DNA of 60,032 bases, filler included, from Squatina squatina (Eukaryota), in the NCBI GenBank assembly GCA_031763465.1. It is 3 parts of 3 records of this genome, joined end to end, with 100 filler letters (N's around TTAATTAATTAA, not from the genome) between each part and the next. Parts side by side here need not be neighbours in the genome. Positions count along the whole stretch, not along the records: positions 44,284 to 60,032 come from JARFOE010000001.1; 2 more parts are not named here. One strand, given 5' to 3'. Positions 1 through 60,032 of this stretch are shown in pieces; the first letter of the stretch is position 1; every line of letters starts with the position of its first letter. The position numbers and the translations under genes were made by a program. Below the pieces are notes generated by a model. That model was not told the origin of the DNA and searched no databases. It saw only the letters and a program-made list of their open reading frames with translations.

Positions 1-342
1 AGTTGGGGAGGAGGCTCCCAACAGTGCGGTGAGCACCGTGTTGACGGTGCTGTCGTTTCTGACCAGGTCGAATCGTTGGCTCCTCTCGTCGTACAGGACG
101 AGGGCGGAGTAGAAGCCAGCTTGAAGCCGGCTGCGGGGCTCCTCGGCCGGGATGATGTGCTGCAGACTGACGGAGCCTTTGGCTCTGCGTTTGACGATGG
201 TGTTGCAGCGGACGTTGAGTGAGCCGCTGATGTGACAGGCACTGTAAGCCAGGAACGATCTGCAGTCCAGAATCAGGCATTTCCGCCCGACCTGCCTCAA
301 GAACCGCTTCACCTGGCTGCACTCAACATCCGACACCTCCAT
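1..342 (-). CDS. DUSP4: Dual-specificity MAP kinase phosphatase (DUSP4/DUSP1 subgroup), first coding exon, rhodanese/KIM domain; runs off the window edge
   Basis: Manual translation: MEVSDVECSQVKRFLRQVGRKCLILDCRSFLAYSACHISGSLNVRCNTIVKRRAKGSVSLQHIIPAEEPRSRLQAGFYSALVLYDERSQRFDLVRNDSTVNTVLTALLGASSPT. LDCRSF, NVRCNTIVxRRAKGSVSL and YDERS match DUSP4/DUSP1. Exact paralog uncertain. Not in the ORF track because there is no stop in the window. Confidence 0.85.
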   Translation of the reverse strand, partial: MEVSDVECSQVKRFLRQVGRKCLILDCRSFLAYSACHISGSLNVRCNTIVKRRAKGSVSLQHIIPAEEPRSRLQAGFYSALVLYDERSQRFDLVRNDSTVNTVLTALLGASSPT

Positions 343-469
343 CTTCACCAGACCCCCGCGATCCGCATCTGGCTGCTGGCTTTGGTTTGTACAGAAATAA
401 AACACAACCAGCGCCCGTATCACGGACTCCAACACTGCTGTGGATTCCCAGGGGAGCGCTGGCCACTCC

Positions 470-540
470 TTCCCCTTTTATGCACTCATCTTATGAATGG
501 AGCACGGCTTCCTAGCCATGTATGGACAATGACGTGTCCA
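470..540 (-). promoter_or_regulatory. Proximal promoter of the DUSP gene: TATA-like CATAAAAG and CRE-like TGACGT
   Basis: Minus-strand CATAAAAG at about 476-483 and TGACGT at 530-535, roughly 140-190 bp upstream of the ATG. Immediate-early MKP genes are CRE-regulated. Confidence 0.5.
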
Positions 541-8385: not shown

Positions 8386-8765
8386 TGTAATTTGGATTAA
8401 TGCTGAAGGTTAGCTATGTGCCATGCTTTCAGTGTAGGAAGCAAGTAATCTAGGAAAGGGTTAACTAGTCAAATGCTAGAAATCTAGGTAGAATTATATA
8501 TTTGAGCATGTGGCACTAGCGTCGAGTCACTGCTCTGTTGTTGAATTTGTAGCTGATGAAGCACAACCAAATTAATATTCATAAGCTCATGCAGATTAAT
8601 TCTGCTATGTTTGTGCAGTTGGCATTTTGCCTTTTTAATTAATTCTGTTGCAGTTCAGATGCATTAGCATTGCGCAGAAAGGAGAGTCTGCTGAGCAGGA
8701 TCGCTAGGCCTGCCACAGAAACAATCCCAATTTTCCTTCCATTATCTTAAATGGTAGAGAAATAT

Positions 8766-9440
8766 GGGGCTAGAAATTGATGGGCGCCACGCTGAAAACG
8801 TGCACGGTGTGGGAGCCGGCATTTCTCTCGCCAGCACTCGGCCTGCCCCTCCCGGAATTCAGCGATCCGGGGTGCCTGCGAGTCGTAGGTCGCTACTGGG
8901 GCAGCAGGCTTTGGACGCCGGTGTTGTGGCTTCAACGCCACATCATCAGCATCAGAAACGCCGCGTCAGCGCAGCACAGCCAGGCCTCCCTTAAAGGGCA
9001 GGGCTGCCGGCCATCGTGACAGTGCCCTGAGGTTGGACACTGGGATCCAGCTGAGGGCCACCATTTTCGACCGATGACGAAGTCGGCCAAAAAATAAAGA
9101 TTGCGGCCGGAGGCGCAGACGCCCTCCCCTTTAACAGGCCTGTTGCAGCGACAGGTTTTACTGTCGCTGCAACCGACCTGTGCTGCGGCCAGTTCCCGCG
9201 GGTGAATTTTGCCCGCAGGATGCAAACTAAGCGTCGAGGGCATTGCAGCTGTTTTGATGATGTCACGTGCAGACCAGCCACGAAATTCAGCTGGGCAGGC
9301 GAGAAGGCGTTTGCACGCCAGCTGAATTTCCCGGGAAGCAAGAGGGGCACCTCACAACGCCATTTTTTTTCTTTTTAATGTCCCATTAACACCCCTCTGA
9401 GGTGCTTCTGGGACATTACAGGAGCTCAATTTTGACCCCC
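8766..9440. mobile_element. GC-rich non-autonomous DNA transposon (PIF/Harbinger-like MITE)
   Basis: Imperfect terminal inverted repeats GGGGCTAGAAATTG ... CAATTTTGACCCC, CpG-rich interior; related ends at 18719-18856 and about 58990. Confidence 0.6.
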
Positions 9441-12339: not shown

Positions 12340-12351
12340 TTAATTAATTAA
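12340..12351. other. Artificial six-frame-stop scaffold linker TTAATTAATTAA
   Basis: Flanked by exactly 44 N on each side (100 in total); identical structure at 44228. Confidence 0.95.
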
Positions 12352-35137: not shown

Positions 35138-37135
35138 ATCAACCTAGTGAACCTTCTCTGAACTGCCTCCAATGCAAGTATATCCTTCCTTAAATAAGGG
35201 GACCAAAACTGTGCACAGTACTCTAGGTGTGGTCTCACCTGCGCCCTGTACAGCTGCAGCAAGACTTCCCTGCTTTTATACTCCATCCCTCTTGAAATAA
35301 AGGCCAACGTTCCATTTGCCTTCCCAATTACCTGCTGCACCTGTGTTTCATATACGAGGACCCCCGAATCCCTCTATGCCACAGATTTCTGCAGTCTTTC
35401 TCCATTTCAATAATATTCTGCTTTTCCATTCTTCCTACCAAAGTGGGTAACTTCACATTTTCCCACATTATACTCCATCTGAAAAGTTTTTGCCCACTCG
35501 CTTAACCTATCTATATCCCTTTGCAGACTCTTTGTATTGACCTCACAACTTGCTTTCCCATCTATCTTTGTATCAGCAGCAAATTCGGCTGCAATACATT
35601 CGCTTCCTTCATCCAAGTGACTAATATAGATTGTAAATAGTTGCAGCCCTGGCACCGACCCCTGTGGCACCCCACTAGTTACAGATTGCCATCCTGAAAA
35701 TGACTGCTTTATCCCCACTGTTTTCTGTTAGTTAGCCAATCCTCTATCCATGCTAATATATTACACCCAGCATGAGCCCTTACCTTATGCAGTAACCTTT
35801 CATGTGGCACCTTATCGAATGCCTTTTTGGAAAACCAAATACACTACATCTACCAGCTCCCCTTTATCCACCCTGCTCATTACTTCCTCAAAGAACTCGA
35901 ATAAATTTGTCAAACACGATTTCACTTTCATAAAACCATGTTGACTCTGCTTGATTATGTTGTGACTTCTAAATGTCCTGCTACTACTTCCTTAATAATG
36001 GATTCTAGCATTTTCCCAATGACAGATGTAAAGCTAACTGGCTTATAGTTACCTGCTTTATGTCTCCCTCCTTTTTTGAATAGGGACGTTACATTTGCGG
36101 TTTTCCAATCTGCTGGGACTTTTCCAGAATCTAGGGAATTTTAGAAGATCACAACCAATGCATCCACTATCTGTGTAGCCACTTCTTTTTACGCCCTAGG
36201 ATGCAAGCCATCAAGTCCAGGTGACTTGTCAGCCTTTAGACCCATTAGTTTGCCTGGTACTTTTTCTCTTGTGATAGTGATTGTTTTAAGTTCCTCACTC
36301 ACTTTTGTCCCTTGATTTTCTACTATTACTGGAATGTTTTTAGTGTCTTCTACTGTGAAAACAGATACAAAATATTTGTTCAATTCCTCTGCCATTTCCT
36401 TGTTTCCCATTATTATTTCCCCGGTCTCATCCTCTAAGGAACCAACATTTACGTTGGCTACTCTTTTCCTTTTTATATACTTGTAGAAGCTATTACTGTC
36501 AGTTTTTATATTTCTTGCTAGTTTACTCTCATAATCTATTTTATCCCTCTTTATTAATTTTTAGTCATCCTTTGCTGGTTTCTAAAAACGTTCCAATCTT
36601 CTGGCTTACCACTAATCTTCACAACATTGTATGCCTTTTCTTTCAATTTGATACCATCCGTAACTTCCTTAGTTAGCCATGGTTGGTTCATTCTTCTCTT
36701 AGAGTTTTTCTTTCTCACTGGAATATATCTTTGTTGAGCGTCATGAAATATCTTAAATGTCTGCCACTGCTTATTACCATCTTACCTTCTCATCTATTTT
36801 CTCAGTCCACTTTAGCCAGCTCTGTCTTTATACCTTTATAATTGCCTTCATTTAAGTTTAATATGCTAGTTTCAGACCCAAGTTTCTCACCCTCAATCTG
36901 AATGTGAAATTCTATCATGTTATGATCACTCTTCCCTAGAGGATCCTTTACTATGAGATCATTAATTAATCCTGTCTCATTATACATTACCAGATCTAAA
37001 ATAGATTGCTCCCACAACGTATTAAGAAACTGTCCCAAATACACTCCATGAACTCGTCCTCAAGGCGACTTTTGCCAATTTGATTTGTCCAATCTATATG
37101 AAGCTTAGAATTGCCCACGCTTATTGCAGTAGGGT
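35138..37135 (-). mobile_element. CR1 LINE ORF2, about 2 kb decayed fragment (EN C-terminus to RT)
   Basis: Serial broken ORFs: LGKSDHNMIEF, KADKSPGLDGLHPR, SGVPQGSV, FAADTKI, VRPHLEYCAQFWSP. Confidence 0.95.
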
Positions 37136-44227: not shown

Positions 44228-44239
44228 TTAATTAATTAA
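44228..44239. other. Artificial six-frame-stop scaffold linker TTAATTAATTAA
   Basis: N44-linker-N44, as at 12340. Confidence 0.95.
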
Positions 44240-45230
44240 NNNNNNNNNNNNNNNNNNNNNNNNNNNNNNNNNNNNNNNNNNNNATGGCCGCCCAGTGTGC
44301 ACCTGAAAACAGGGCCAGCAGATGAAAATCCAGGGAGGCAATCTCTCAGCCACTCCTTTGACGCCCAAGACCCACCTGATGTGATATTTCAGGCAGGCCG
44401 TTAAATGGGTAAGCAGCCCAGCCGCCAGAAACAGGCGCAAGGCTGCTTAAAGATACAAATCAGGGTCATACATGTGGCGCATGTTCTGCCTACCAGATCT
44501 TGAGTGGCCTAACCAGTGGTCTTTAATAGGACCACTGAAGGCCGCTCAAAAAAAAAAGGCCTAAAATATTTTAATTTTTATTTTTCTGGACCAGGAGTAA
44601 CAGCATTGCTTTTCTTGGGCCTACAAGAAAAAAAAAATATCCAACGGCATTTTCACAGCCCCCCTCGCCACCAACCCCAAGGATTGCCTCCTCTCCCAGA
44701 CTCACCCTGCTGGCCGATTTCCCACCCTCTCTGAACGGCGAGCTGCAGCAGTCGCTGGCAGCCTTTAAATGAGCCCGAAGCCAAATTTGGATTGGGCCTC
44801 AGGCCAGCACAGACCATTGTGCAGAAAAGTCGCTCTGGCAACTTTGTACACCTTTTGAGTGCAAGTCGAATTGCTCGACTCCCAACTTTTGCTGTGACAT
44901 AATTTGGTTCCCCTGGTGTCCGTAACACTCTGGTTTCTCAACCAAGTAGCTGCTGTTTATGTGCAAACCTGACAGTGGATAGCAACAAACTAGTTAACTA
45001 TGGAATCAAAGTCAAGGCCAATTCTCACCACATACCTAAACATTCCAGCTGGAGTCACCAGATAGTGGTCAGGGTGGAAACCCAGTTTATTTTCCTTTTC
45101 TTTCCTGGTGACACTGAGATCAGCTAACTAATTATGGAACGGGGACTTTCCTGGTCTGTATGGCTCAGTGCCACATCACACGTTGCATTTACTGTACTTA
45201 CTGTTAAGAGCTGTAACAGAGAGACTCCTA

Positions 45231-45392
<162 letters not shown>

Positions 45393-45996
45393 TTAACAAA
45401 ACACAGTCATTAATATTTCACAAGACATTGCTAGAAGAAACAAAAAAAGTGAAGAATTGTTTCTGCCTTTGAAAAAGAACTTATGACCAGTTATTATACA
45501 CCTAGTTTACAAGGAGCCTATAGCAATGATGAACATGTTATAATAATTACCTGATAACCATATCGGCGTACTCAGTGTGCTGCTTGTACCAAAGTACTTT
45601 GTTGCAAGCTTTGGCACCTAACATATTATTGATCAAAAGCAAAATACTCACTGAAAATCATAACTATAACTCTCTCAATAGCCAAATGGGCAAAAGGTAC
45701 CATCCAATCTATCACAAAGCCATATGACACAGAAGATCCTAGGTTCCATTTCATTCTTTGTGCGGAGTTTGTTAAATTCAGCCCGGGCAGCAGGTGTGGG
45801 TGTTGCAATTGGCCTTAGCTTTCTGGGCCAGTCAGTGGAAAAAGTCAGCCAGGATTTCCACTCATGGTTAAAAGTGTGTATTTGTGGCTGCCAGCTNNNN
45901 NNNNNNNNNNNNNNNNNNNNNNNNNNNNNNNNNNNNNNNNNNNNNNNNNNNNNNNNNNNNNNNNNNNNNNNNNNNNNNNNNNNNNNNNNNNNNNNN

Positions 45997-46875
45997 TTCA
46001 ACTACTCTCTGTGGTAGCGAGTTCCATATTCTTAACACTCTTTGGGTAAAGAAGATTTTTTCTGAATTCCTTACTTGATTTCTGAGTGACTAACTCAGAT
46101 TGCTGATCCCTAGTTTTGCCCTTCCCCACAAGTGGAAACACATTCTCTATGTCTATTCTCTATGTCTACTCTTACCAAAATCTTTTATAATTTTACAGAC
46201 CTCTATTAGGTCACCCCTTAGCCTTGGCTTTTCAAGAGAAAAGGGACCCAGCCTGTACATCCTTTCCTGATAGAACCTTGCAGTTCTGGTATCATCCTTG
46301 AAAATCTTTTTTGCACCCTCACAAGTGCCTCTGTACCTTTTCCAAAATATGGTGACCAGAACTGCACACATTACTCCAAGGGTGATCTAACCAAGGTTCA
46401 ATATAGGTTGACCATAACTTCCCAACTTTTCAATTCTATCCCTCTGGAAATAAACCCTAGTGCTTAATTTGCTTTTGTTATGGCCTTATTGACCTGCATC
46501 GTAACTTTTAGTGAATTGTATATTTATACTCCCAGGTCCCTTTGCTCTTCTACCCCATTTCGATTCTTGTTATCCACATAATATGTGACCTCCTTATTTT
46601 TGATACCTCACACTTAACTGCGTTGGAATTCATTTGCCAATTATACGCCCATTCTTCAAGTTTATTAATGTCTTCTTCTAACTTGTTGCAGCCCTCCTCG
46701 GTGTTGACTATCCCCACCCCCAATTTGGTGTTGTCTGCAAATTTAGAAATTTGTGTTTGTGATTCCAAAGTCTAAATCATTTTGATCCCAAAGTCTAAGT
46801 TATGAACAACAGTGTTGTTCCTTGTGGGACCCCACTGCCCACTTCCTGCCACTCTGAATAGCTACTCTTTACACC
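45997..46875 (-). mobile_element. CR1 LINE ORF2 fragment
   Basis: SGVPQG, SKFADNTKLG and LRGDLIEV motifs. Confidence 0.9.
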
Positions 46876-47971
46876 NNNNNNNNNNNNNNNNNNNNNNNNN
46901 NNNNNNNNNNNNNNNNNNNNNNNNNNNNNNNNNNNNNNNNNNNNNNNNNNNNNNNNNNNNNNNNNNNNNNNNNNNCCCATGGCAATTGATATGCACAGTG
47001 GGAAATTTATGAGTTAGCCCTGCCCCGCTGCCCCCCCCCCCCCGCCCCCCCAACTCCTGATCTCGGCAAAACCAGTAGAAAGAACACGGTGATAGACCAT
47101 ATAGTTCAGGCTAAAATCTAGAATGTGGGTGGAATGATCCTTGTACCTCTCGCCCCTAAAATTAATCATTCAAACCCTGTTAATGTGGCGCTAATATCCT
47201 TGGAGTCCTCAAGGTGCCATTCTAGTGAGTTGTCATTTCATTACTTATGACATGATATAACAATGCTAATAAATCCTGGCACGTTCACACAGTGCACTCT
47301 TATCCTATAATGTGAGTTATTTTGGGTCATATGTTTATTACTGAGAGCAATCTATTTGGACAGGACTGTGTATGATGGCTGTTGTGATAAATGAAGAATT
47401 ATTGCAGTAGTTGGGCATGTTGAATATAACACTTCACTGTGCACTTTGTAAATATTTTGACATAAAATGTGGTTGTTTAAATAGTGTGTTTAATGGCATG
47501 AATTCCAGAGGGGTTTGGATAAGACGGGTGTTGTGGTTTGAAAAGTTCTTTCAAAGGCTTTGAAGTAAAATTTATATTTTTAACAGAGAATCTGTGGGTG
47601 AGAATGAGGGAAATTTGACTTATGATTGTACATCTGTTGTAGCTTTTTAATTTTCTTTCAACTTTAGTGTGTTCAGCTGCTAAGGAGGAAGAGGGAAAAT
47701 AAAAAAGGGGAAGAAGGAGAGTTATTCACTTATGTTTTGCTTATAGTTGCCAAAGGTAATTGCTAATTCCTTACACCTGTAAGACAGGCTTAATTGCTAA
47801 CACGTATGAAAGAAACACACAAACAAGATGGATACAAAAGCAACAGTATTTACATACATGCCAAACTGCATACTTATCTACAGAATTTTGACTTCCCAGA
47901 GCAGAATGTATTAACTCTCTCTATATGCAGCTTACATTTTGACAAAGGTGGTGACCATATGCTTCACTTAC

Positions 47972-48138
47972 CATCATCAGCTGATTTTTTAGTTAATTTT
48001 GGATACCGTTGAAACTTGACATAATAGTAGCTTTCATACTCCATTAGGATGGTTTCCAGGTCAATATTATCACAAACTTCAAAACGTCGTAATCCTAGAC
48101 TGGTTTCTTGTTCCAATGTATTTGCCGTATCTATATAA
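47972..48138 (-). CDS. KATNAL2: KATNAL2 N-terminal (LisH-region) exon
   Basis: ctcattcaatag|..|gtaagt, 167 nt: (G)[55 protein letters not shown]. Confidence 0.95.
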
Positions 48139-49033
48139 CTATTGAATGAGAGAGAGAGTAAAGAAGGGAAAGATAAATGTGTTTTGACTGTATGGTTTAG
48201 ACATGCCTAAAACAGACACTGACAGAACTGTTCCACTCCAAAGAAAATTTTGAAAAGCAAAAAAAAATTTAAATTCTATTCTGCCTGCTGACAGGAATTG
48301 CAAAATTTCCATNNNNNNNNNNNNNNNNNNNNNNNNNNNNNNNNNNNNNNNNNNNNNNNNNNNNNNNNNNNNNNNNNNNNNNNNNNNNNNNNNNNNNNNN
48401 NNNNNNNNNNNNTCCCTGCTTTCTCCCCATATCCCTTGCTCCCTTTAGCCTTAAGAGCTATATCTAACTCCTTCTTGAATATATTTAATATTGTATCGTG
48501 TGATTATCAGGATAGTAGAAGATAAACTGGATGGTCTTTTTTCGTCTAGCAATTCCTGTGTCGGTGATTCACCAGTAGTTTTGTCAATAATATTGGCTCC
48601 CTTTCTCTTTCCCTGGGCTGTGGGTTTAAAGAGAACTTTGATTTTACATCATTTAAAATTAATGTGAAGATAACTTCATTTGAATGCTGAAATGTATCCA
48701 ATTTAAATCTGAGCGACAGTAAATTGCTGTAAATTCAACCTAGCATGTTTACGTATGAGTTGAAATAGAATTTATATAGTACACAAAAGGAATGCAAGTA
48801 TTCACTGGCCTAATGTGATAAAGCTAAGGAGATTCTAGGTCCCACAGCATTTTCCAGTTTCAAGATAACAATTTCTTTAGATTGTGTCACAGTAAGCATT
48901 GAATACAAAATGACTTGATTAGTAAGTTAGTATTTTTCTCAATATTAAGAGTTATAGATTTAAAAAGTTAGTAACACTAAGCAATGATGGTAGATGAAAA
49001 TATTTAGTTTCACTGCTTTTTTTTATCTTTCAG

Positions 49034-49505
49034 AATATGGTTTCCAGTTTTCGTGTATCAGAACTTCAAGTGCTATTAGGTTTTGCCGGTCGTAACAAAA
49101 GCGGTCGCAAACATGAACTCCTTGTAAGAGCACTACACTTGTTGAAGAGTGGCTGTAGTCCAGCTGTTCAGATCAAGATTAAGGAACTGTACAGACGCCG
49201 TTTTCCTAGAACTATTGAAAGCCTTGCTGACTTGTCAGCCATAAAGTCTTCTGTTTTCTCTTTGGACAATAACCTCCCAGCTGACTCTGAGTTAGCCTCA
49301 GGCATTGCGCAGTCTTCGGCATCCACATCGGCCACACCTCAACCGTCATCTCCACTGGTTAGCCCTGTGTTACTGCATGAAACTAAACCGAATATAGAAA
49401 TGCAAGAGGCTTCACCCTCCATCCATCCTGTCCATCCAGATGTCCAGCTGAAAAGCATACCCTTTTATGATGTGTTGGACGTGCTTATTAAACCTACAAG
49501 TCTAG
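49034..49505 (+). CDS. PIAS2: E3 SUMO ligase PIAS2, exon 2 (SAP domain to start of PINIT)
   Basis: tttcag|AAT ATG..CTA G|gtgag; NMVSSFRVSELQVLLGFAGRNKSGRK..KSGCSPAVQIKI..PVHPDVQLK..FYDVLDVLIKPTSL. Confidence 0.97.
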
Positions 49506-49911
49506 GTGAGTTTTAATATTCAAACATTACAGTAACAGAGTAAAGGAATATTTTAGCCAGACCCAAAAAAAAAAGTATCTCCTTTAAGCTTTTCTTTCCT
49601 AAAGGCAGCTCCACAGGTGGTGAAACTTCGAAAAACTTGCTCATGTGATGGTGGACTTTAAGTGTTAGTAGGTTATTTGTCTATGACCGTCATAGCTGAG
49701 ATGTTTACCTGATTTGCACTTGTTCAGTTTAACAGGCACAATCTATATAGTTTGATTTTGCAGGTAACAGAAGCCACATCAACATCTTAATTGGGGATTN
49801 NNNNNNNNNNNNNNNNNNNNNNNNNNNNNNNNNNNNNNNNNNNNNNNNNNNNNNNNNNNNNNNNNNNNNNNNNNNNNNNNNNNNNNNNNNNNNNNNNNNA
49901 TTTGGTTCCAG

Positions 49912-50002
49912 GTTTTGCCTCGCAGAGACGAGCTGTCCCCAGGAAGACAATTATCCTAATAATTTGTGTATAAAAGTAAATGGAAAACTTTATCCATTGC
50001 CG
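49912..50002 (+). CDS. PIAS2: PIAS2 PINIT-domain exon
   Basis: ccag|..|gtaag, 91 nt: (R)FCLAETSCPQEDNYPNNLCIKVNGKLYPLP. Confidence 0.95.
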
Positions 50003-52004
50003 GTAAGTTTAAAACTAATTACAAAAAAATGTGTATTTTTGCGGGGTAGAAGTGGTGAATGAATGCTGTGCTGATTATGAGAGCTGTTGGTGCTGGAAGA
50101 ATGGAATGTTTTTCGACTCAGGCACCTACAATCTACCATTGTGCACTCCCAGGTAAGGTAAAGAATGAGATAAACGCAAGGTAAAGCTTTGTGCTGAGAG
50201 TGCTTAAAATTTTAGACCATTAATCTGGGCTATTTTCAGACCTACAGCAACATTTTAAGTTTATAATGAAACAGTGGTTTAAGGTTTTAAACAGAATTGC
50301 TTGTAGGGAAACCGTGGTAGAAACAGAATGTGTAATGAAAGGGAAATGGATAAATATTTAAGAGAATAATTTAAAAGCGTATGGGGAAAGGGCAGGGAAA
50401 TGTACTTCACAATGGACCAAATGACCACCTTCTGTGATGTAGAAGTCTATAATTCTGTGCAAAGAAATAAAGCATTACAAGCTGGCAACACATTGAATAA
50501 GTACATCACATCAGTGTCCAGCCATTTTCATCAGGGTCACTGGTTAGCTGTCAGAGTGAGAACCCTGCCCAGGGCACTGCAACCTCAGCTGAGTACAGCT
50601 AACCTAGCACAGCNNNNNNNNNNNNNNNNNNNNNNNNNNNNNNNNNNNNNNNNNNNNNNNNNNNNNNNNNNNNNNNNNNNNNNNNNNNNNNNNNNNNNNN
50701 NNNNNNNNNNNNNGGACGGAGTGGTACTGTTTTAACTTTTTAAATTGTAGAACTGGGTTATTATTCTTACCTTCCAAAGTATGATTGTACATATAGCCAA
50801 TATGAAAATCCCCAAGAACAAACTGATTGCAGTAATTAATACTGCTACTTTATTTTTTGGTTTTGGAATACCAAGAACCTTGTTGACCTGCAGCATTCAC
50901 AGAGACTTGCCCAGTGCAGCACTTCCTTGGATGAGTATGGGAACAAGAATGGACGGCGGGAACTAAGAGTTTGAATCTGAAGTCTTGTCTGAAATACCTG
51001 GCCAAAGTGGGTTTCAGGTATTGTGGAAGCAGAAGAAAATTGTAATGTGTTCTGTTGCGGTTAATGTAGTGTAGTTCCATTTACGGCCACCAATGAAATT
51101 CACAGTAAGTTTTTATTCTCCTGACAGTTGACTCTGGATATCCACGCCCCTCCTCAAAAATATGCTTTGTCTCTGTAACAGTTCAAATAATTGGTGCTTT
51201 ATTGTGAAGAATATTATAGCCTCAGCCACTGTCGAAGAACAACATCCTTTCATATTTACTGAGGTTAAATGCTGTAATCCTGTCTCAAATGCAATAACTG
51301 AGCCACAGGTTAACATCTTTAGGATAAGATATTGTAATAATCAGTTCTGAGATTTAACTCTCTTTATTGATGATTAAATTACATGTAAGCTTGTACAGTG
51401 TTTCCAGGATGGCAAAAAAAAAATCATTTTTCTTTTAACGGTTTCCATTCCTTTTTTAAAATTTAAATGTGCAGTTTTCTGATCTTTGAAAAATGATATA
51501 ACATCACTCAAAATTGCACGGCAAACATAAATAATTATCAGACATTCTTTCCGGAAGTAGTAGGAACACAGAACTTTTCACTGACAGTATATCGGCAACC
51601 TGAGGCTGACAATTTATGCTAGTATTACCTGAATCTTAATTGTGAACCAATAGTCATTTTGATCAGCAGTGGTAAGATTTGGAAACCGATACCAGTGATT
51701 GTTATTGTTTGCNNNNNNNNNNTTGGCAAGCAAGCACATTTAAAAGGGATTGGTTACTGCCATAAGTTGAGTTTGAGTTTTCCAATCAATGTTTGCTTTG
51801 AAAAAGGTCTTTGACTACAGGACAATGTTTTTTATTTTGTAGTATCACAGCCCTTTAATCCAATTTTTTTCCCCAATTCTATTTCTGAACTTTTTGCAGT
51901 TGGCTAAGGCTAAGAGGATGCCAGCTGACAACATATGAGTGTGTACGAGGACTGACTGTTTGACTTTTGTACCTTCTCCTATTCTTTATCTAATTACCTC
52001 TGTT

Positions 52005-52149
52005 GCGCTCATCCATTTTAGAAACACAGATGTGCTGGTAACCCGCTCCCCTGCCTCTCCACCCTCGACTGCAACAAGTGTGAGGAGCTATTGAACTTCT
52101 TTATCACTAAGATTATGACCATCTGTTCAGCCGCATCCCTCCCTTCTCT
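52005..52149 (+). mobile_element. L2 LINE ORF2 fragment
   Basis: ..STLDCNKCEELLNFFITKIMTI.. typical of L2 ORF2. Confidence 0.55.
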
Positions 52150-52249
52150 NNNNNNNNNNNNNNNNNNNNNNNNNNNNNNNNNNNNNNNNNNNNNNNNNNN
52201 NNNNNNNNNNNNNNNNNNNNNNNNNNNNNNNNNNNNNNNNNNNNNNNNN

Positions 52250-54572
52250 CTATAAATAATCATTGAATAAAGACTTTAACTAATTAAATAAATAAAATAA
52301 GGCTAGACTAAGATATGGCAGAGCAGATTGTGTATCTGGACTGCTGTATGTGGGACTTTGTGAACAGCGAGACAGGCCCGAGCAAACACGTCTGCAGGGG
52401 GTGTCTCCATCTCGAATCTCTCCGTCCCAGAGTCACTGAGCTGAAGTGTGAGTTGGAGACACTCTGACGCATAAGGGAGGGGAGGAATTTCTGGAAGGTC
52501 TTATCCAGAATACAGTCATACCCCAGAGGAAAGCACAGGTTCAGGAAAGGGAGGGTGTGACTGTTAGGCAGCCGCGTAGTGGGTATTTAGGAGAGGTTGA
52601 GAAGGAAGTCCCGCAGATACTGGTCATGTCCAAGAGATACGATGTAGTCGCTACCTTTGAGGACAAGAAAGGCGGCAAAGAGGATATTCACAATGCAGAC
52701 CAAGGCACCGTGGTTCAGAAGGCTGTCCAACAGGGTGGGGAGGTGCGGGGGGTTGGGCGAAGAGCAGAATAGAAGTGTTGAAGTGATTTGGGAGCTCTAT
52801 AATTAGGGAGATATATAGCGTCCTCTGCAGCCAAGAATGAGAATCCCGAAGGGTATGTTGCCTGCCCGGTGCCAGGGTAAGGAATATCTTACAGCAGCTG
52901 GAGAGGAACTTGAAAATGGAGGGGGTAAATCCAGTTGCCGTGGTTCATGTTGGAACAAATGACATCGGTCAGAACAGGAAGGAGGTTGTGCTGAAACAGT
53001 ACCAGGGGTTAGGTCTAAATTAAAAAGCAGGATCTCGTGGATAATAATCTATGGATTATTGCCCGAGCCACGTGCAAGTTGGTGTAGAAACAGTCAGACC
53101 AGGAGAATTAACACGTGGCTCAAGGGCTGGTGTGGGAAAGAGGGGCTCCTTTTCATGAGACACTGGCACCAGTACTGGAACAGGAAGGAGCTGTCCCAAT
53201 GGGACGTGCTCCACCTGAACTGGGATGGGATCCGGGTCCTCACGGAAAGAGTAAATAGGGAGGTGGCAAAGTCTTTAAACAATAAGATGGGGGAGGGATC
53301 TAGAAGAAACATCGAAACATAGACATAGAAAATAGGAGCAGGAGTAGGCCATTCGACCCTTCGAGCCTGCCCCGCCATTCAATATGATCATGGCTGATCA
53401 TCCAAATTCAGTCCCTGCTTTCTCCCCATATCCCTTGATCCCTTTAGCAATAAGAACGATATCTAACTCATTGTTGAATATATTCAATGATTTGGCCTCA
53501 ACTGCCTTTTGTAGTAGAAACGTAACCAGCCTAAATATAAACAAAAGAGAAAACGGAGAGCACAGGAAAGAAAAAGTACATTGATGGCAAGGGAATAAAT
53601 ACAGATATAGAACAGGAGTCTAAAAAGATGGTTAAACATGGAGTGAAAGGCTATCCTATTAAAAATGAGTTAAACTCCCTGTACAGCAATGTACACAGTG
53701 TCCGTAATAAAACGCGGGAGCTGAGGCAATTATGTGTTGTGAGGAACCAAACACATTAGGGATTACTGAGACATGGCTACAGAAAAATCAGGAATTAAAC
53801 AATGCAGGGCATAACATGTATAGAAAAGATAGAAAGGGAAAAAGGGGAAGTGGAGTTGCTGTACTTATTCGGGTTAATAAAATGACAGTAGATAAAGTGA
53901 TGCAGCTATCAGCAAGACAAAACGAAATCCATATGAATAGAGATAAAAGATAATAAAGGATCATTCACACTGATAGGCGTAGCCTACAGACCAGCTAATA
54001 GTGGAAGGGAGTTGGAGGAAGAAGTATGCAGACAAATTAGGGAAATGAGTAAAAAAAACATAGAATAATCATCATGGGGGATTTCAACTGCCCCGATATT
54101 AATTACACAGAAGAGGTAGGTAAAGGAGATAAAGAAATGGAGTTCCTACAATGTGTACTGCACTCCTTTCTAACCCAATATGTAAAAAGACCAACAAGCA
54201 AGGATTCGCTATTGGATCTAGTAATGGGGAATGAACAGAGCAGATAAGATATGTAAAATAGGGGAACATGTGGGCAATAGTGACCATAATGTTATTCGCT
54301 TTAAGATGATAATTAAGAAGGACATAAGTATGATGAAAACCAGTAATAGATTGGAGAAACGCTGATTTTGAGGGGCTGAGAATGGAACTTGGGAAAATAA
54401 AATGGGCAACAATATTGGCAAAAAAACGATGTAGAACAGCAATGGGAAACATTTCAAACAGTGTTCAACAGAGTGCAGGAACAATATATTCCGCTAAAAG
54501 GAAGGAACAAACTAAACACTAATGAGACTTGGTGGATGAATAAAGCCAGAAGGAAACAATTGAGGGTAAGGA
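52250..54572 (+). mobile_element. 5' half of a decayed CR1 LINE: ORF1 (zinc-finger/zipper + SGNH esterase) and ORF2 endonuclease
   Basis: ATG at 52315: MAEQIVYLDCCMWDF..HVCRGCLHL; VCCLPGARV, VHVGTNDIG; then GITETWL, YRP, MGDFN, SDHNVI. Many stops and frameshifts. Confidence 0.9.
53305..53517 (-). mobile_element. Younger CR1 3' end nested in the 52250 element
   Basis: GAAACAT(A/C)GAAACATAG tail and GGAGTAGGCCATTCG; TAGAA on both flanks. Confidence 0.85.
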
Positions 54573-55222
54573 AAACATAGAAAATAGGAGCAGGAGTAAG
54601 AGCAGGAATAGGCCATTCGGCCCTTCGGGCCTGCTCCACCATTCAATACGATCATGGCAGATCCTCTTTCCCACTTTCTCCCCATATCCCTTGATGCCTT
54701 TAGTATCAAGAAATATATCGATCTCCTTCTTGAATATATTTAATGACTTGACCTCCACGGCCTTCTGTGGCAGAGAAGTTCCACAGGTTCACCACCCTCT
54801 GAGTGAAGAAATTTCTCCTCATCTCAGTCCTAAATGGCCTCCCCCGTATCCTGAGACTGTGACCCCTGGTTCTAAACTCACCAGCCAGGGGAAGCATCCT
54901 CCCTGCATCTCGTCTGTCCAGTCCGGTCAGAACATCAGAAGTTTCAATGAGATCCCCTCTCAATCTTCTAAACTCCAGTGAATACAGGCCTAGTCGACAC
55001 AATCACTCCTCATACGACAGTCCTGCCATCTTAGGAATCAGTCTGGTGAACCTTTGCTGCACTCCCTCCACGGCGAGAATATCCTTCCTCAGATAAAGAG
55101 ATCAAACTGCACACAATACTCCAGTTGTGCTCTCACCAAGGCCCTATATAATTGCAGTAAGACATCCTTGCTCCTGTACTCAAATCCTCTTGCAATGAAG
55201 GCCAACATACCATTTGCCTTCC
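54573..55222 (-). mobile_element. Younger CR1 3' fragment
   Basis: RLGLYSLEFRRLRGDLIET..FRTEMRRNFFTQRVVNLWN plus tail. Confidence 0.92.
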
Positions 55223-55539
55223 NNNNNNNNNNNNNNNNNNNNNNNNNNNNNNNNNNNNNNNNNNNNNNNNNNNNNNNNNNNNNNNNNNNNNNNNNNNNNN
55301 NNNNNNNNNNNNNNNNNNNNNNATTTTGTTTTTATTAACAAAGGACAGCATACATTACGTTATCTCCGTGTATAAGCCCAGTGAGGCTGCCCAGGCAGGT
55401 CACTGACTATAAATAAGAGCAGCTCTTGTTTATCTCACTGTCACATGTCTGCAGTTCCAGCGCTCTCTGTGTAACATCTGCTGCTATACTGCAAGAAGTG
55501 AAGGAGTGAGCGGAATTGAGTTCACATAATGTTCTGAAG

Positions 55540-55821
55540 GACAAGTGCATGATATTTATAGCCACTACTTTTTGACTGTAATTTTGTCGAGGTGGTTATC
55601 ATAGGCGGGGAAGCCAGCTGTGCCAACGAAAAAATTATCCGAGCAGCGGTTTTCAAGATATAGCCTCGGGCACTTTTCGGAGGTCACTCAGCAGGCCTAC
55701 ATTTGGGGGCTCGTAGTTCACAAACCATCATAGTTACGACATCAAACCTACACATTTATATTGAAGAAACTTGCATTGAACCGAGGAACATTTTTTTTTT
55801 ACCATATGCCGAGAGATCCCT
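55540..55821. mobile_element. Kolobok-like DNA transposon end
   Basis: Ends ..GAGAGATCCCT|TTAA (reverse complement TTAA|AGGGAT), the TTAA + RR terminus typical of Kolobok. Left limit unknown. Confidence 0.4.
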
Positions 55822-55825
55822 TTAA

Positions 55826-56860
55826 CCCTCGCACCGACGGGGGTCTGAGCCAACATAGAACCGACGGTGGGGGCGGATAACCGCCCCCCCCTACAGAGAT
55901 CTCGAAAACTACTCAACGTATCGAGAAGCGGAAAACGGCGTTAGGTAGGCCGTGACGAGTACTATAGAAAATATAAAGGTGATTTTCTGATCAGGTCAAT
56001 ATTGAGGTCACCAGAGGTCAAAACAGGTCAAATTTTCCTATATTTCGAGTAAATTGAACATTGCGTCACATAATCCGGGCTAGCTCGGTAACTAAGATAG
56101 CTATAATTAAACGGTAAAAAGCACTGGAAAGCCCTTGAAACGCTCTTTCGCGTCTATGTCCTCAGATTTGAGATCGGGTCAATAGTTGAGGCTCCAGAGG
56201 TCAGGAAAGGTCAAAATGCTAAATTTCGCGGAAAAAGTGTTTTGCTAATAACTTTTTATTTATATAAGCTAGAGCAAAACTTTTGTCACCATCGTGTTTC
56301 TCTCGTCACGGCGCATCGAATGATCTATCGGATGACCTAGCTAGGTCAAATTCGAAAATTTGACCTGACCTGACCTGAGGTCATGTCAAGGTCAAGTCAA
56401 ATTTGATATCACTTGATGACGATCGATAAGAGAAACAGAATGGTGAAAACCCTAGCACTCTACCTCACGTAGAAGACGAGTTATTGTACAAAAACCAAAT
56501 ATGCCCTGGGGCACATTGGATTTGACCTCAAAGAGGTCACGGAAGAAAATTATAATATGCATTCTTCTACATAGCTCCAAAATAGTCATATTGATGAATA
56601 GTTAGCTGTTATAACAATTCCACCAAAATCACACCATGGCCAATTCAAAAGTATGGATTGAAACTCCATGGAAATGTGCCCTTTCTCAACACATGACTAA
56701 AATGATATTCTTGTTTTTTGCTGAATCTATTTTTTCACATTAATTTATGTTCTTTCTATAAATGTTGTAAAAAAACACTTCATGAAAAGCAAACATCACA
56801 AACTCAAACCACCAGCAATTGTGAAGGCTATGTCGTTAGTGTCATTTGTTATAGGTGAAC
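55826..56860. mobile_element. piggyBac-like (TTAA|CCC) CpG-rich element with AGGTCA repeat array
   Basis: TTAA|CCCTCGCACCGACGG, a second ACCGACGG, a GGGGGCGG-ATAA-CCGCCCCC hairpin and 15 AGGTCA/TGACCT hexamers. No matching right end found. Confidence 0.55.
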
Positions 56861-56864
56861 GTGG

Positions 56865-57075
56865 AAAATCATAATATGATTAGGCAGAGTCAACACAGTT
56901 CTATGAAATGGAAATCATGTTAGACAAATCTATTACAGTTTTAAAGAGGGTGTAACTGACAGGGTAGATAAGGGAACCAGTGGATGTAATATATTTGGAT
57001 TTTCAGAAACGATTTGATAAGGTGCCACGCAAGAGGTTGTTACACAAGATTAGTGCTCATGTGATTGGGGGTAAT
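56865..57075 (+). mobile_element. CR1 LINE RT fragment
   Basis: VDVIYLDFQKRFDKVP motif. Confidence 0.9.
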
Positions 57076-57376
57076 NNNNNNNNNNNNNNNNNNNNNNNNN
57101 NNNNNNNNNNNNNNNNNNNNNNNNNNNNNNNNNNNNNNNNNNNNNNNNNNNNNNNNNNNNNNNNNNNNNNNNNNNCAGTATCTTGGAGCGCTCAAACCGC
57201 ATGCAATCGTGCCGCCTCTTGCTCCACCTGTGCTCAGTTTAAGTATTATGCAGAGAAGAAAACCATTCATAATCGCTTTGTCCCTAGACTTCCAACGAAG
57301 TGGCTAGCACTGTTAGAGTTGATGATACAACGGCGTGTGAATCTGTTTTTAAGAATGTGATCTTTATTTGCTGCAG

Positions 57377-57469
57377 ATACTTTGAGTTGCACGAAGGCCC
57401 GTTTGAGTACAACTCCTCAACATGCCGGAAGCTACGAAATGAGATCATGGAGGTGAAGATACTTTCCAT
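57377..57469 (+). CDS. ST8SIA5: Alpha-2,8-sialyltransferase 8E, exon 2
   Basis: tgctgcag|..|gtaagt, 93 nt: (R)YFELHEGPFEYNSSTCRKLRNEIMEVKILS(M); matches ST8SIA5 YFEFYEGPFEYNSTRC..EVKVLSM. Confidence 0.93.
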
Positions 57470-57539
57470 GTAAGTCACTGACTTCAAAGGCAGAGGTTCT
57501 CATGAAAATCGTATTTTAAAAAAGGCATATGATAAAAAT

Positions 57540-58146
57540 GGACAGAGTGACAATATGTAGAAGAAATCTGAGAATTGTGAAAGATACAGGAATGAAGCAA
57601 AAAGAGAGATTAGAAAAGCTGAAAGGAAGTATGAAAGGTGGATCAAAGAAAATTGGGCAGCAGCACAATGGGATCACTTTGAGGAAAAGGGGGCCATCTT
57701 ACACTTGAAAGCGAGGAAATAACAGATATGCTTTATATAATATATATATATAGTATCAGGTTTTTTTAAGAGGAATGTGATAGTGGGTCTGTGGGAATAC
57801 CTGAGGAGCCATTACTCGTGGTAAATATTGAAAAGGACTCTTTAAAATGTTATCTAAATTAAAAATAGAAAAGTCACCAGGTCCAGAATGCATGTATCCT
57901 GAAAATACTGAAGCTGTTGGAAAGTAAATAGCAGAGACACTAAACATAATTTTTCAAACATTTTTGGAAACCAGAATTATGTTAAAGAACAGGAAGGGGT
58001 AAGCCTGTTCCACCATTCAATGACATTATGGCTGACCTGCGACCTAACTCCATATACTCGCCTTTGGCCCATATCTCTTAATACTTTTGGTTAGCAGAAA
58101 GCTATGAATCTCCGATTTAAAAATTAACAATTGACCTATCATCAAT
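57540..58146. mobile_element. Degenerate CR1 fragments (plus-strand ORF2 remnant, then minus-strand 3' end)
   Basis: AKREIRKAERKYE and LKIEKSPGP remnants, then the reverse complement of a CR1 tail. Confidence 0.6.
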
Positions 58147-58419
58147 NNNNNNNNNNNNNNNNNNNNNNNNNNNNNNNNNNNNNNNNNNNNNNNNNNNNNN
58201 NNNNNNNNNNNNNNNNNNNNNNNNNNNNNNNNNNNNNNNNNNNNNNCACATGTATACATATGTGTGTCTGTGTAGATCTATGCATGTAAAGAATAAATGA
58301 GACTTTGATTCCATTCATCTGGGTTGGATTTCAAATGTAGCTTTATACTGTCGTGACAAAAATCCATGCTGCCCAGTCCTTGTTATCTATAATTGGTTTT
58401 TGGGGTTTCCTCTTCATAG

Positions 58420-58532
58420 GAAATGCCATATTCACGCTCCCAGTTTAAGAAATGTGCAGTGGTTGGGAATGGAGGAATCCTGAAGAACAGCAGGTGCGGG
58501 AACGAGATTGACTCTACAGATTTCGTGTTCAG
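58420..58532 (+). CDS. ST8SIA5: ST8SIA5 sialylmotif L exon
   Basis: catag|..|gtatg, 113 nt: [37 protein letters not shown](R). Confidence 0.95.
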
Positions 58533-58989
58533 GTATGACGGAGCAGAGCCCTTCCTTGTGCTACAGTGGAACACACAAATCTTCAGGGAATGCTTTCCAG
58601 AAAATAAATGTCTAAATGTTCATTACATCTATAGAGATATGGGTCCTGAAATTCTGCTGACGTTCTCCTAATCTCTGGCCATAACGTCGGTGGGAGATCG
58701 GAGGAACCCCAGAAGAAACAACGTGAATGGCTGAACATGACAATATGTGTTGTTTTTCTGGGATTTCCATTTGTTTCCCGCTGAAGTTATAACGAGAGAT
58801 CAGGAGAAGCCCCGCAGAATTTCTAGGTCATGGTCACCATATCTGGGAGTTTTTCTAAGTTCTGAAAAGAGATTAAGGAGGTTGGGTTGCCCAGTGAAAG
58901 TTTTCAAGATTAAAGGAAATTGACAAAATTGACCGAAGCAATATGTTGACTGTGGTGAAAGGCTCACACAACTTTTAAAGATTAATTCA

Positions 58990-60032
58990 GGCCACTTGCG
59001 CTTCCTGTTAGTGCCCCTGGGGATGCTAATGGGGGCCAAACCTTTCGCCCATGCACGGCGCCGCTATCGACTCCTGCGAAAATCCGCGGGAGGTTCACAG
59101 CGGCATGAACTGGTAGCACCCCAGGCCGCCGCGCCGGCGATGATGATGTCATCACCATGTGCAGTGACCCGTTTTCACCCCGGAGCAGAAATTCAGGAGC
59201 GCCCCCCCTCCTGAAGCTTTGCTGGGCGATGACAGCAACAGCTTCAGTGGGTGTGTACCGGGCTGCAGGCCACTCGTGGGCTGCTAGTTAAAGGGGAGGT
59301 GGCAAGCACGAAAAATCGGCTGACTTACCAGTCGCATCTTTCAACACGAGGTCCGTGCCACAATCTGGCAGCCCGGCACTCTGCTTGAGTGCTGGGGTGA
59401 TGCCATGGCACTCCGCTCCCGCAGAGTCTGCAGCTCAGCCCGCCACACGGCAGCGCTACGTATGCTGCGCCCGGTGACGATGATTCTCCACTGCAATCCC
59501 TGTCTCCAGCGCCTGCGCCCCTTTCCCCATGCTTCCACTCTGGTCTTCCCCCTAGGTTTCTATCCATCCTGGATATGGCTGCAATCAGAGTCTGCAAGCT
59601 GCTGTTCACAGCAAACATGCACTTTTTTGACTGGTGCATTTGATGCCGTATGTAGATGACCATCCTTTCCATGAAAGAGCACATCTAGCCATTGCCTGCG
59701 ACATCGTGCTGCTCATATTGGAGATGGACTGCTCCAATCTCTGCACCATCGAGCACATCGCAGTTGAGAAAGCTGCCAGAGCCACCTAAATTTTTTGTTG
59801 CTCCTCAAGAATCATCTTTGTCGACAGTCCCCGAGGTTCAGCATCTGCGTCTAGCTGAGCAAAGTTTGGAGCATCTTGGACCCTCCGAGGAGGACTATCC
59901 ACTGCTGCCCCTGTCTCCACCATCTGCCCTTGCTCACTTGTGATCTGTGAGACGAGTGACAACACTAGTCTCTCTCTTACTGGACCCACTGAAATGTGCG
60001 TATCTGCACTGGTGCTGGGTGTGCATGTATCA
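58990..60032. mobile_element. GC-rich Harbinger-like element (same end family as 18719), possibly with a decayed internal ORF on the minus strand
   Basis: GTTAGTGCCCCTGGGGATGCTAATGGGG matches the reverse complement of 18790-18835; minus-strand helical remnant ILEEQQKI*VALAAFSTAMCSMVQRLEQSISNMSS. Confidence 0.5.

Follow-up and report, generated by a model that had tools for sequence, protein, structure and literature searches.

Exact nuclear-receptor half-sites arrayed in a probable non-coding DNA transposon fragment of Squatina squatina

What would make a DNA transposon that encodes no protein retain so many exact nuclear-receptor half-sites across deep divergence? The question is raised by a 60,032-nucleotide stretch of the Squatina squatina assembly GCA_031763465.1 (the window), which consists of 47 pieces, most of them joined by 100-N gaps. 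One piece, 55323-57075, carries a dense array of the hexamer AGGTCA. We regard the array as a real feature, borne by a transposon, whose apparent family-wide conservation matters more than this locus.

The half-site array

Fifteen perfect AGGTCA/TGACCT hexamers lie within 547 bp (55993-56539), all of them at the positions given in the initial annotation of this DNA.

55993, 56005, 56015, 56025, 56198, 56208, 56343, 56378, 56389 and 56534, plus strand: AGGTCA half-sites, exact match
56333, 56361, 56366, 56371 and 56523, minus strand: half-sites, exact match

The hexamers at 56361, 56366 and 56371 overlap by one base, so that the array holds at most 14 non-overlapping sites. Taken group by group, the pairings are DR6, DR4 and DR4; DR4; ER4; IR12, a minus-strand DR4 (56361/56371), ER1, ER6 and DR5; and finally ER5, for a total of four perfect DR4 and one DR5. 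The initial annotation had listed DR4 and DR5 pairs, which are indeed present, but it missed the minus-strand DR4, and what it called a perfect palindrome at 56333-56348 is an everted repeat, ER4. Of the RGKTCA direct repeats typical of response elements, spaced 4 for TR and 1, 2 or 5 for RAR, the window copy has the four DR4 and the one DR5. There is no DR0 to DR3 in this copy, and its closest inverted pair is IR12, hence no IR0, IR1 or IR3. ERE, TREpal and IR1 layouts were considered and set aside, as none occurs in the window copy (though IR0 fits 8/44 relatives).

The density of sites is far above chance. In 5000 dinucleotide shuffles of the 547 bp the mean is 0.29 hexamers and the maximum 4, and the rest of the window has 42 sites per 55,379 bases, or 0.41 per 547 bp (Poisson P for the array about 1e-18); both figures agree with the earlier estimate of fewer than one. 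Outside the array, four-letter hexamers reach at most 7 copies in 547 bp. Nine of the sites read on as GGTCAA, and TCAAGGTCA lies at 56386. A spacing of 10-12 nt is found only inside clusters: Rayleigh R is 0.19 at 10.5 nt, 0.22 at 10 nt and 0.53 at 10.2 nt, the last being one among five periods tried. We rejected array-wide 10.5-bp phasing on the R of 0.19.

The carrier element and its relatives

The array very probably lies in a fragment of a non-coding transposon that starts with TTAA followed by CCC. The carrier is likely a non-autonomous DNA transposon, 0.9-1.2 kb long when complete, with ends of the piggyBac type; the right one is absent from the window. That a transposon carries the array had been proposed in the initial annotation, and the proposal is backed by relatives that map collinearly and by family ends at TTAA. 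The parts of the element are as follows.

55822..55825, no strand: TTAA target site at the left tip, from the sequence; the fit to relative P0030 begins here
55826..55843, plus: left terminal repeat starting CCC, a piggyBac-type end; from its reverse-complement fit to the C-terminal codons of P0040
55860..55891, plus: second copy of an 11-nt terminal direct repeat (27-nt spacing; repeat D13), then a G/C palindrome at 55866-55891
55993..56030, plus: cluster 1, four AGGTCA (DR6, DR4, DR4), 168-205 bp from the tip
56172..56234, plus: cluster 2, a diverged duplicate of cluster 1, with GGGTCA, one decayed site and the DR4 at 56198/56208
56237..56338, plus: left arm of an imperfect inverted repeat inside the element, in ungapped pairing with 56394-56495
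56333..56348, no strand: everted repeat ER4, TGACCT-AGCT-AGGTCA
56361..56394, no strand: central cluster, with overlapping TGACC triplet, ER1 and DR5 (DR0 in relatives)
56394..56495, minus: right arm of the internal imperfect inverted repeat
56523..56539, no strand: distal everted pair ER5, the last detected part of the element; homology stops near 56550

The junction at 55822 reads TCCCT, then TTAA, then CCCTCGCAC. Counted from this tip, the half-sites sit 168-714 bp inside the element; AGGTCA was not found in the first 167 bp, and the terminal repeat does not recur internally. Cluster 2 matches cluster 1 at an offset of 183 bp with 79% identity. The two 102-bp arms of the inverted repeat flank the central cluster and pair at 60/102 bases, with a score of 30.6 versus a shuffle maximum of 16.1 (n=200), and the DNA fold of this region has a z of -6.3. 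The window copy appears to be without its right part in the assembly, because 20/51 relatives continue past 56670 and homology stops near 56550; a right-end partner of the terminal repeat was not found in the window. The element occurs there as one copy. Its CpG observed/expected ratio, 1.16 over 55826-56500, is the highest in the window, compared to 0.20 just to the right and a median of 0.39 (391 windows).

Searches for coding capacity in the element found none. The longest stop-free frame has 77 codons, no frame matches Pfam, and there is no Rfam, phage or plasmid match; a word-based protein search with the 77-codon frame and the ESM Atlas likewise gave no match. A transposase for the family was not found among 124 + 110 window frames, nor in longer proteins (0/7590 candidates).

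We looked for relatives in predicted-protein sets, using the 77-codon chance frame of the element as the query. With phmmer there were 6 matches, of which 4 lie along 55881-56550 in collinear order and run on across stop codons of the window; a profile search gave 56, none with a Pfam domain, of which 51/56 map by tblastn onto the same interval of about 670 bp. The other 5/56 have no tblastn match to the window, and 12/56 lack the central anchor and hence fall outside the 44 relatives used for site-by-site counts. Identity of the mapped relatives to the window is mostly 30-50% in translation, and many match both strands of the inverted repeat. The relatives fall into 19 clusters at 70% identity. 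One of them, P0003, aligns ungapped over 55984-56412, through the window's stop codons, and 0/5 alignment members match Pfam. We read these relatives as spurious translations of what would be one non-coding repeat family. Two further proteins, P0001 and P0004, translate tandem repeats of no relation to the element, and every count excludes them. The set P0002-P0058 amounts to dozens of spurious repeat translations in public predicted-protein sets, one cluster having 76 members, and a reader might take them for a new family of proteins.

Several relatives bear on the ends of the element. From TTAA at 55822 onward, the codons of P0030 fit with 14 mismatches in 20 codons, the best of 106,492 positions; upstream of TTAA the fit drops to background (1.54 mismatches per codon). 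A 4-residue word in P0030 is repeated at 9-codon spacing, matching the place of the 11-nt direct repeat. At the C-terminus of P0040, 7 codons match the left tip in reverse complement, with a single mismatch among 21 (the best of 110,002 positions tried). P0044 stops in that register too, and its codon there is compatible with TTAA; the next residue of P0040 misfits an intact TTAA. These terminal stretches were picked by eye, and their plain protein alignments are not above shuffles (45 against a maximum of 45, 41 against 48, and 30 against 41). Projected element lengths are 1172 bp from P0040 and 905 bp from P0044. The inverted termini and the 0.9-1.2 kb length of the family are inferred from the codons of these relatives. 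Past 56550, one of 12 distal parts aligns just above shuffles (43 vs 42), a hint at a possible match between 56507-56570 and a later cluster in the relatives. The C-terminal 20 residues of P0025 depart from the family sequence at a point compatible with TTAA-CCCTCG, as if a related element had entered an internal TTAA; the alignment is not above shuffles.

The ends invite comparison with piggyBac-like elements and their non-autonomous derivatives (Bouallegue et al., PMC5381638; PMC5861402 on T. ni piggyBac), which share the TTAA site, the CCC tip, a short terminal repeat with a direct repeat close by, and, some 180-200 bp in from the left tip, a cluster of repeats. In contrast to them, the present element has no transposase gene, its internal motif is AGGTCA rather than the terminal motif, and it has at least 15 sites across its body together with a 102-bp internal inverted repeat. 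In the piggyBac-like elements described in PMC5861402 one transposase motif recurs at both ends and at a left internal site; here no motif common to these three places is found, AGGTCA being absent next to the left tip. A terminal inverted repeat starting C or CCC is found for the family, its inverted copy coming from the codons of two relatives, but not for the window copy, which has TTAA on the left and lacks the right end. Against the six-base piggyBac motif C[CAT][CAT][TGA][TAG][TGA], the element's CCCTCG fits 5/6 and misses position 5; according to the same source only the first C of piggyBac termini is highly conserved (PMC5381638). We therefore file the element under piggyBac-type ends, a provisional label, with superfamily membership unproven.

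Other classes fit less well. Like a MITE, the element has no coding capacity (a longest frame of 77 codons, no Pfam match, homology running through stops), but the projected 905 and 1172 bp exceed the usual MITE length of up to 600 bp (PMC3879986). Kolobok and T2-MITE elements also use TTAA (PMC6004289, PMC9587614), but Kolobok termini are RR..YY (PMC9587614), whereas the array element starts CCC. Crypton was dropped, as Cryptons are without terminal inverted repeats (PMC3212892).

Half-sites and spacings across the family

Judged by codons, half-sites appear better kept among relatives than the rest of the element. At codon positions 1-2, mismatches to the window amount to 53/318 (17%) in half-sites versus 821/2074 (40%) elsewhere (18 of 19 cluster representatives), a contrast that leans upward because matches were found via shared words that include half-site regions. 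Left out of this comparison are the central cluster, where the register differs (189/340), and the inverted-repeat core, which was chosen afterwards (132/480). Taken together, these translated sequences make it fairly likely that the hexamers are kept as putative binding sites.

Spacing and half-site counts in relatives report the codon compatibility of translations rather than the DNA of the relatives, and the spacing counts lean upward as well. Counted in this way by cluster (n=19), the commonest pairings are DR0 (16), ER1 (16), ER7 (15), ER4 (14) and DR4 (12), followed by IR6 (8), IR0 (6), IR5 (6), DR6 (4) and DR5 (3); shuffled sequences reach at most 1-4 clusters. The family backbone inferred from these codons would be DR0, ER1, ER4 and DR4. 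In the site-by-site test of 44 relatives the ER1 count is circular, as the anchor itself encodes ER1.

Individual sites differ in how far their spacing is shared. At the position of the window's DR5, DR5 fits 0/44 relatives and DR0 fits 41/44; by these codons, the DR5 is private to the window copy. The ER4 at 56333-56348 fits 32/44 relatives and 13/16 clusters, or 31/42 relatives with another anchor, and its spacer letters vary. In cluster 1 the first DR4 register is present in 16 relatives, the first half-site being degenerate in 5 of these, and the third site varies among DR3, DR4, DR5 and loss. In cluster 2 an RGGTCA DR4 fits 9/17 covering relatives (7/12 clusters), and DR3 and DR5 fit 0/17. 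For the distal pair, ER5 fits 13/26 relatives (2/7 clusters) and ER6 fits 4/26 (3/7 clusters). The initial annotation had asked whether spacings are conserved among copies: judged by codons, the DR4 and ER4 registers appear to be kept in part (9/17 at cluster 2; 32/44), and DR5 fits no relative at its place (0/44).

Candidate binders and the locus

We tentatively propose, as the best explanation of the array and as a possible rather than a probable one, that the hexamers are family-wide candidate sites for host orphan nuclear receptors. The array would likely serve the transposon and not the neighbouring genes. Orphan receptors that tolerate varied spacing or bind DR0, among which are COUP-TF and TR2/TR4, would load on the clusters and, once loaded, would help the element to reach germline chromatin, or to pair its ends there, without T3 or retinoic acid. 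Complete copies would move through cuts at their TTAA ends, made by a piggyBac-type transposase provided in trans, and the window copy, without its right end in the assembly, would be immobile. A host receptor is favoured as the binder because the word is an exact nuclear-receptor half-site, with known spacing rules for TR and RAR (PMC1785376); because the terminus has no hexamer, in contrast to the motif that piggyBac-like elements have both at their ends and internally; because hexamer arrays recur in unrelated repeats; and because the commonest layout, DR0, is the site of GCNF (NR6A1), a receptor that binds DR0 of AGGTCA and is expressed in germ cells (PMC10909835). Against this proposal, the window copy has no DR0, just two unrelated repeats with such arrays were found, and both the GGTCAA extension at nine sites and the position of cluster 1 favour a transposase as the binder.

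The two repeats are a nested insert in KolobokP-8N1_DrPo-I and a contig from a bacterial genome record, L001. The ends of the former look, in our own estimation, Helentron/HINE-like. It has 10 TGACCT per ~190 bp by our count by eye (PMC9587614, supplement 3) and resembles the present array in that perfect TGACCT copies are packed densely into a mobile repeat that does not code, with the same AAATT flank; it differs in its mostly DR0/DR1 spacing and in having no TTAA-CCC ends. We read DrPo as Dreissena polymorpha, a species listed in PMC9587614, and no discussion of the TGACCT array was found in the available text of that paper. The other repeat, spaced at 370 bp, carries the AGGTCA motif and has no match to the element family. 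It came from a scan of prokaryotic genome contigs that gave 4 exact 18-mer matches, a number within chance; the other three (L002-L004) resemble ordinary GC-rich coding DNA and were set aside. L001 has 37% GC, no frame of more than 124 codons, AGGTCA runs at 187-225 and a repeat at 1-160/371-531, and looks like eukaryotic repeat DNA binned with a bacterial genome.

A rather unlikely but live rival is that the family's own piggyBac-type transposase binds the hexamers, as internal sites, through its cysteine-rich domain, and that their likeness to receptor sites is coincidental. Cluster 1, at 168-205 bp from the tip, occupies the place of the piggyBac left internal site LI178-227 (PMC5861402), and sites occur in both orientations, with inverted pairs IR5 in 6/19 and IR6 in 8/19 clusters. 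Direct and subterminal repeats are frequent in piggyBac-like elements (94/157; PMC5381638). The GTCAA of the T. ni motif TGCGT(c/a)AA is found at 11 places in the element where 1.25 are expected, a count that is not independent of the array, but the full TGCGT(c/a)AA is not found there. Nor does any hexamer lie in the terminal 167 bp, whereas in the elements described in PMC5861402 the motif is common to ends and internal site; the same hexamer is arrayed in unrelated repeats, and no autonomous partner was found in the window frames or the longer proteins searched. The initial annotation had offered transposase-binding sites as its alternative, in the form of subterminal repeats with a phasing of about 10 bp; the binding sites survive as a rival, but the phasing fails beyond the clusters and the sites are internal (168-714 bp) rather than subterminal. 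We think it improbable that the hexamers arose without selection, as a 5-nt GACCT/GGTCA unit slipped and was duplicated within the element. The overlapping TGACC triplet, a 5-nt GTCA-type insertion that converts DR0 to DR5, the duplicate at a 183-bp offset and the variable third-site spacing would all follow from such a process, which accounts for variation and not for conservation: half-sites are better kept than spacers and flanks in relatives only about 40% alike in translation, and the ER4 and DR4 registers stay while spacer letters change.

A further alternative concerns the provenance of the element and not its identity, namely that the assembly brought foreign DNA, or a false join, into a contig with repeat ends. 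The highest CpG ratio of the window, the lack of a second copy in it and its 47 pieces with mostly 100-N joins point that way, but the contig runs gap-free into CpG-poor DNA and a LINE fragment common to the rest of the window, the CpG signal would be the same after recent insertion or in unmethylated DNA, and there is no phage or plasmid match; we give this alternative little credence. Least credible of all, and in our judgment highly improbable, is the initial reading of the array as a ready-made cassette that would make PIAS2 or ST8SIA5 respond to T3/LXR and retinoic-acid signals. The element is CpG-rich, and by published spacing rules (PMC1785376) its four perfect DR4 and one DR5 are predicted to be bound in vitro by TR/RXR and RAR/RXR. 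Yet no relative (0/44) fits DR5 at that place, family layouts are dominated by DR0, ER1 and ER4 (DR0 and ER1 in 16/19 clusters each), the array is inherited from the transposon with nothing specific to the locus, and the contig lies between gaps, its position relative to both genes not fixed by the assembly. As a hormone switch for neighbouring genes the array therefore matters little: its DR5 is an accident of the window copy, and the gene link is unproven.

If host receptors bind the hexamers, they would be cofactors of cut-and-paste transposition, and such elements would seed clusters of sites at insertion, in contrast to Alu sites, which arise by later mutation. Alu elements likewise carry perfect receptor direct repeats (DR2/DR4), but they are retroposons with one pair each, mostly created by CpG decay after insertion (PMC1785376), whereas the window element belongs to a DNA transposon family in which several clusters are inherited and CpGs are intact. 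If instead the transposase binds, it would have converged on the receptor half-site. A bolder extension of the receptor proposal, which we regard as unlikely, is that a non-autonomous piggyBac-type family and unrelated repeats would in parallel recruit GCNF/COUP-TF as transposition cofactors, and that one copy entered the host genome recently, bringing about 15 sites at once. No description of receptor half-site arrays in DNA transposons was found in the literature searched, which included few subscription journals and no Repbase Reports, and Repbase and Dfam may well hold the element family already.

The surroundings of the array comprise a left neighbour, a LINE fragment and, on other pieces, exons of two host genes.

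55323..55821, minus: unrelated left neighbour ending in TCCCT, then TTAA; its end fits RR..YY with TTAA (PMC9587614)
56866..57075, plus: LINE fragment at which the contig ends; shares 74% identity with 35760-35968 (214 bp)
58420..58532, plus: sialyltransferase exon with sialylmotif L, 113 bp with AG/GT borders, two gaps downstream of the array piece
48998-49513: SAP exon
49901-50059 (frame): PINIT exon

The end of the left neighbour resembles the Xenopus XKol terminus in Table 5 of PMC6004289, and no partner end was found in the window; with low confidence, 55323-55821 is possibly one end of a Kolobok-type element sharing TTAA. Two TTAA-targeting elements may thus share one target site at 55822. 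The last 240 bp of the neighbour are also CpG-rich (0.93). Between the element and the LINE, 56551-56865 is AT-rich and CpG-poor, and no repeat, domain or clear homology was found in it. The sequence matched by the LINE fragment, 35760-35968, adjoins an RVT_1 match at 35410-35727; we take the fragment to be CR1-type. By its SINE and LINE repeats, with 5 matches of one repeat word, the window resembles DNA of a cartilaginous fish.

The exon at 58420-58532 covers positions 49-87 of Pfam Glyco_transf_29 and residues 96-130 of ST8SIA3 chain 5bo6_A. It had been called ST8SIA5 exon 2, but it encodes sialylmotif L and is a mid-gene exon, presumably the equivalent of human exon 5. The paralog names PIAS2 and ST8SIA5 are our assumption from synteny, since domain matches show only SAP, PINIT and GT29. 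Among 124 plus-strand frames of 44284-60032 there is no SP-RING exon and no other sialyltransferase exon, a search in which short exons could be missed, and a motif search of 49500-60032 gave no other PIAS/ST8SIA exon and two chance four-letter matches on the other strand. With the contig between 100-N gaps, the link of the array to ST8SIA5 made in the initial annotation is unproven; the array might lie in an intron of either gene, between genes, or out of place.

Elsewhere in the window, the open frame at 1-477 (minus) matches a rhodanese-like domain (E 1e-5) and probably belongs to an exon of some other host gene. At 12340-12351 and 44228-44239, 12-base A/T-only pieces between 44-N gaps resemble assembly or masking marks. 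A decayed LINE at 52250-54580 (plus) has an esterase-like ORF1 (GDSL, weak) and endonuclease remnants, interrupted by SINE-like repeats, and two GC- and CpG-rich stretches, 8700-9400 and 58980-59500 (CpG observed/expected 0.7-0.85), are possibly copies of one GC-rich repeat.
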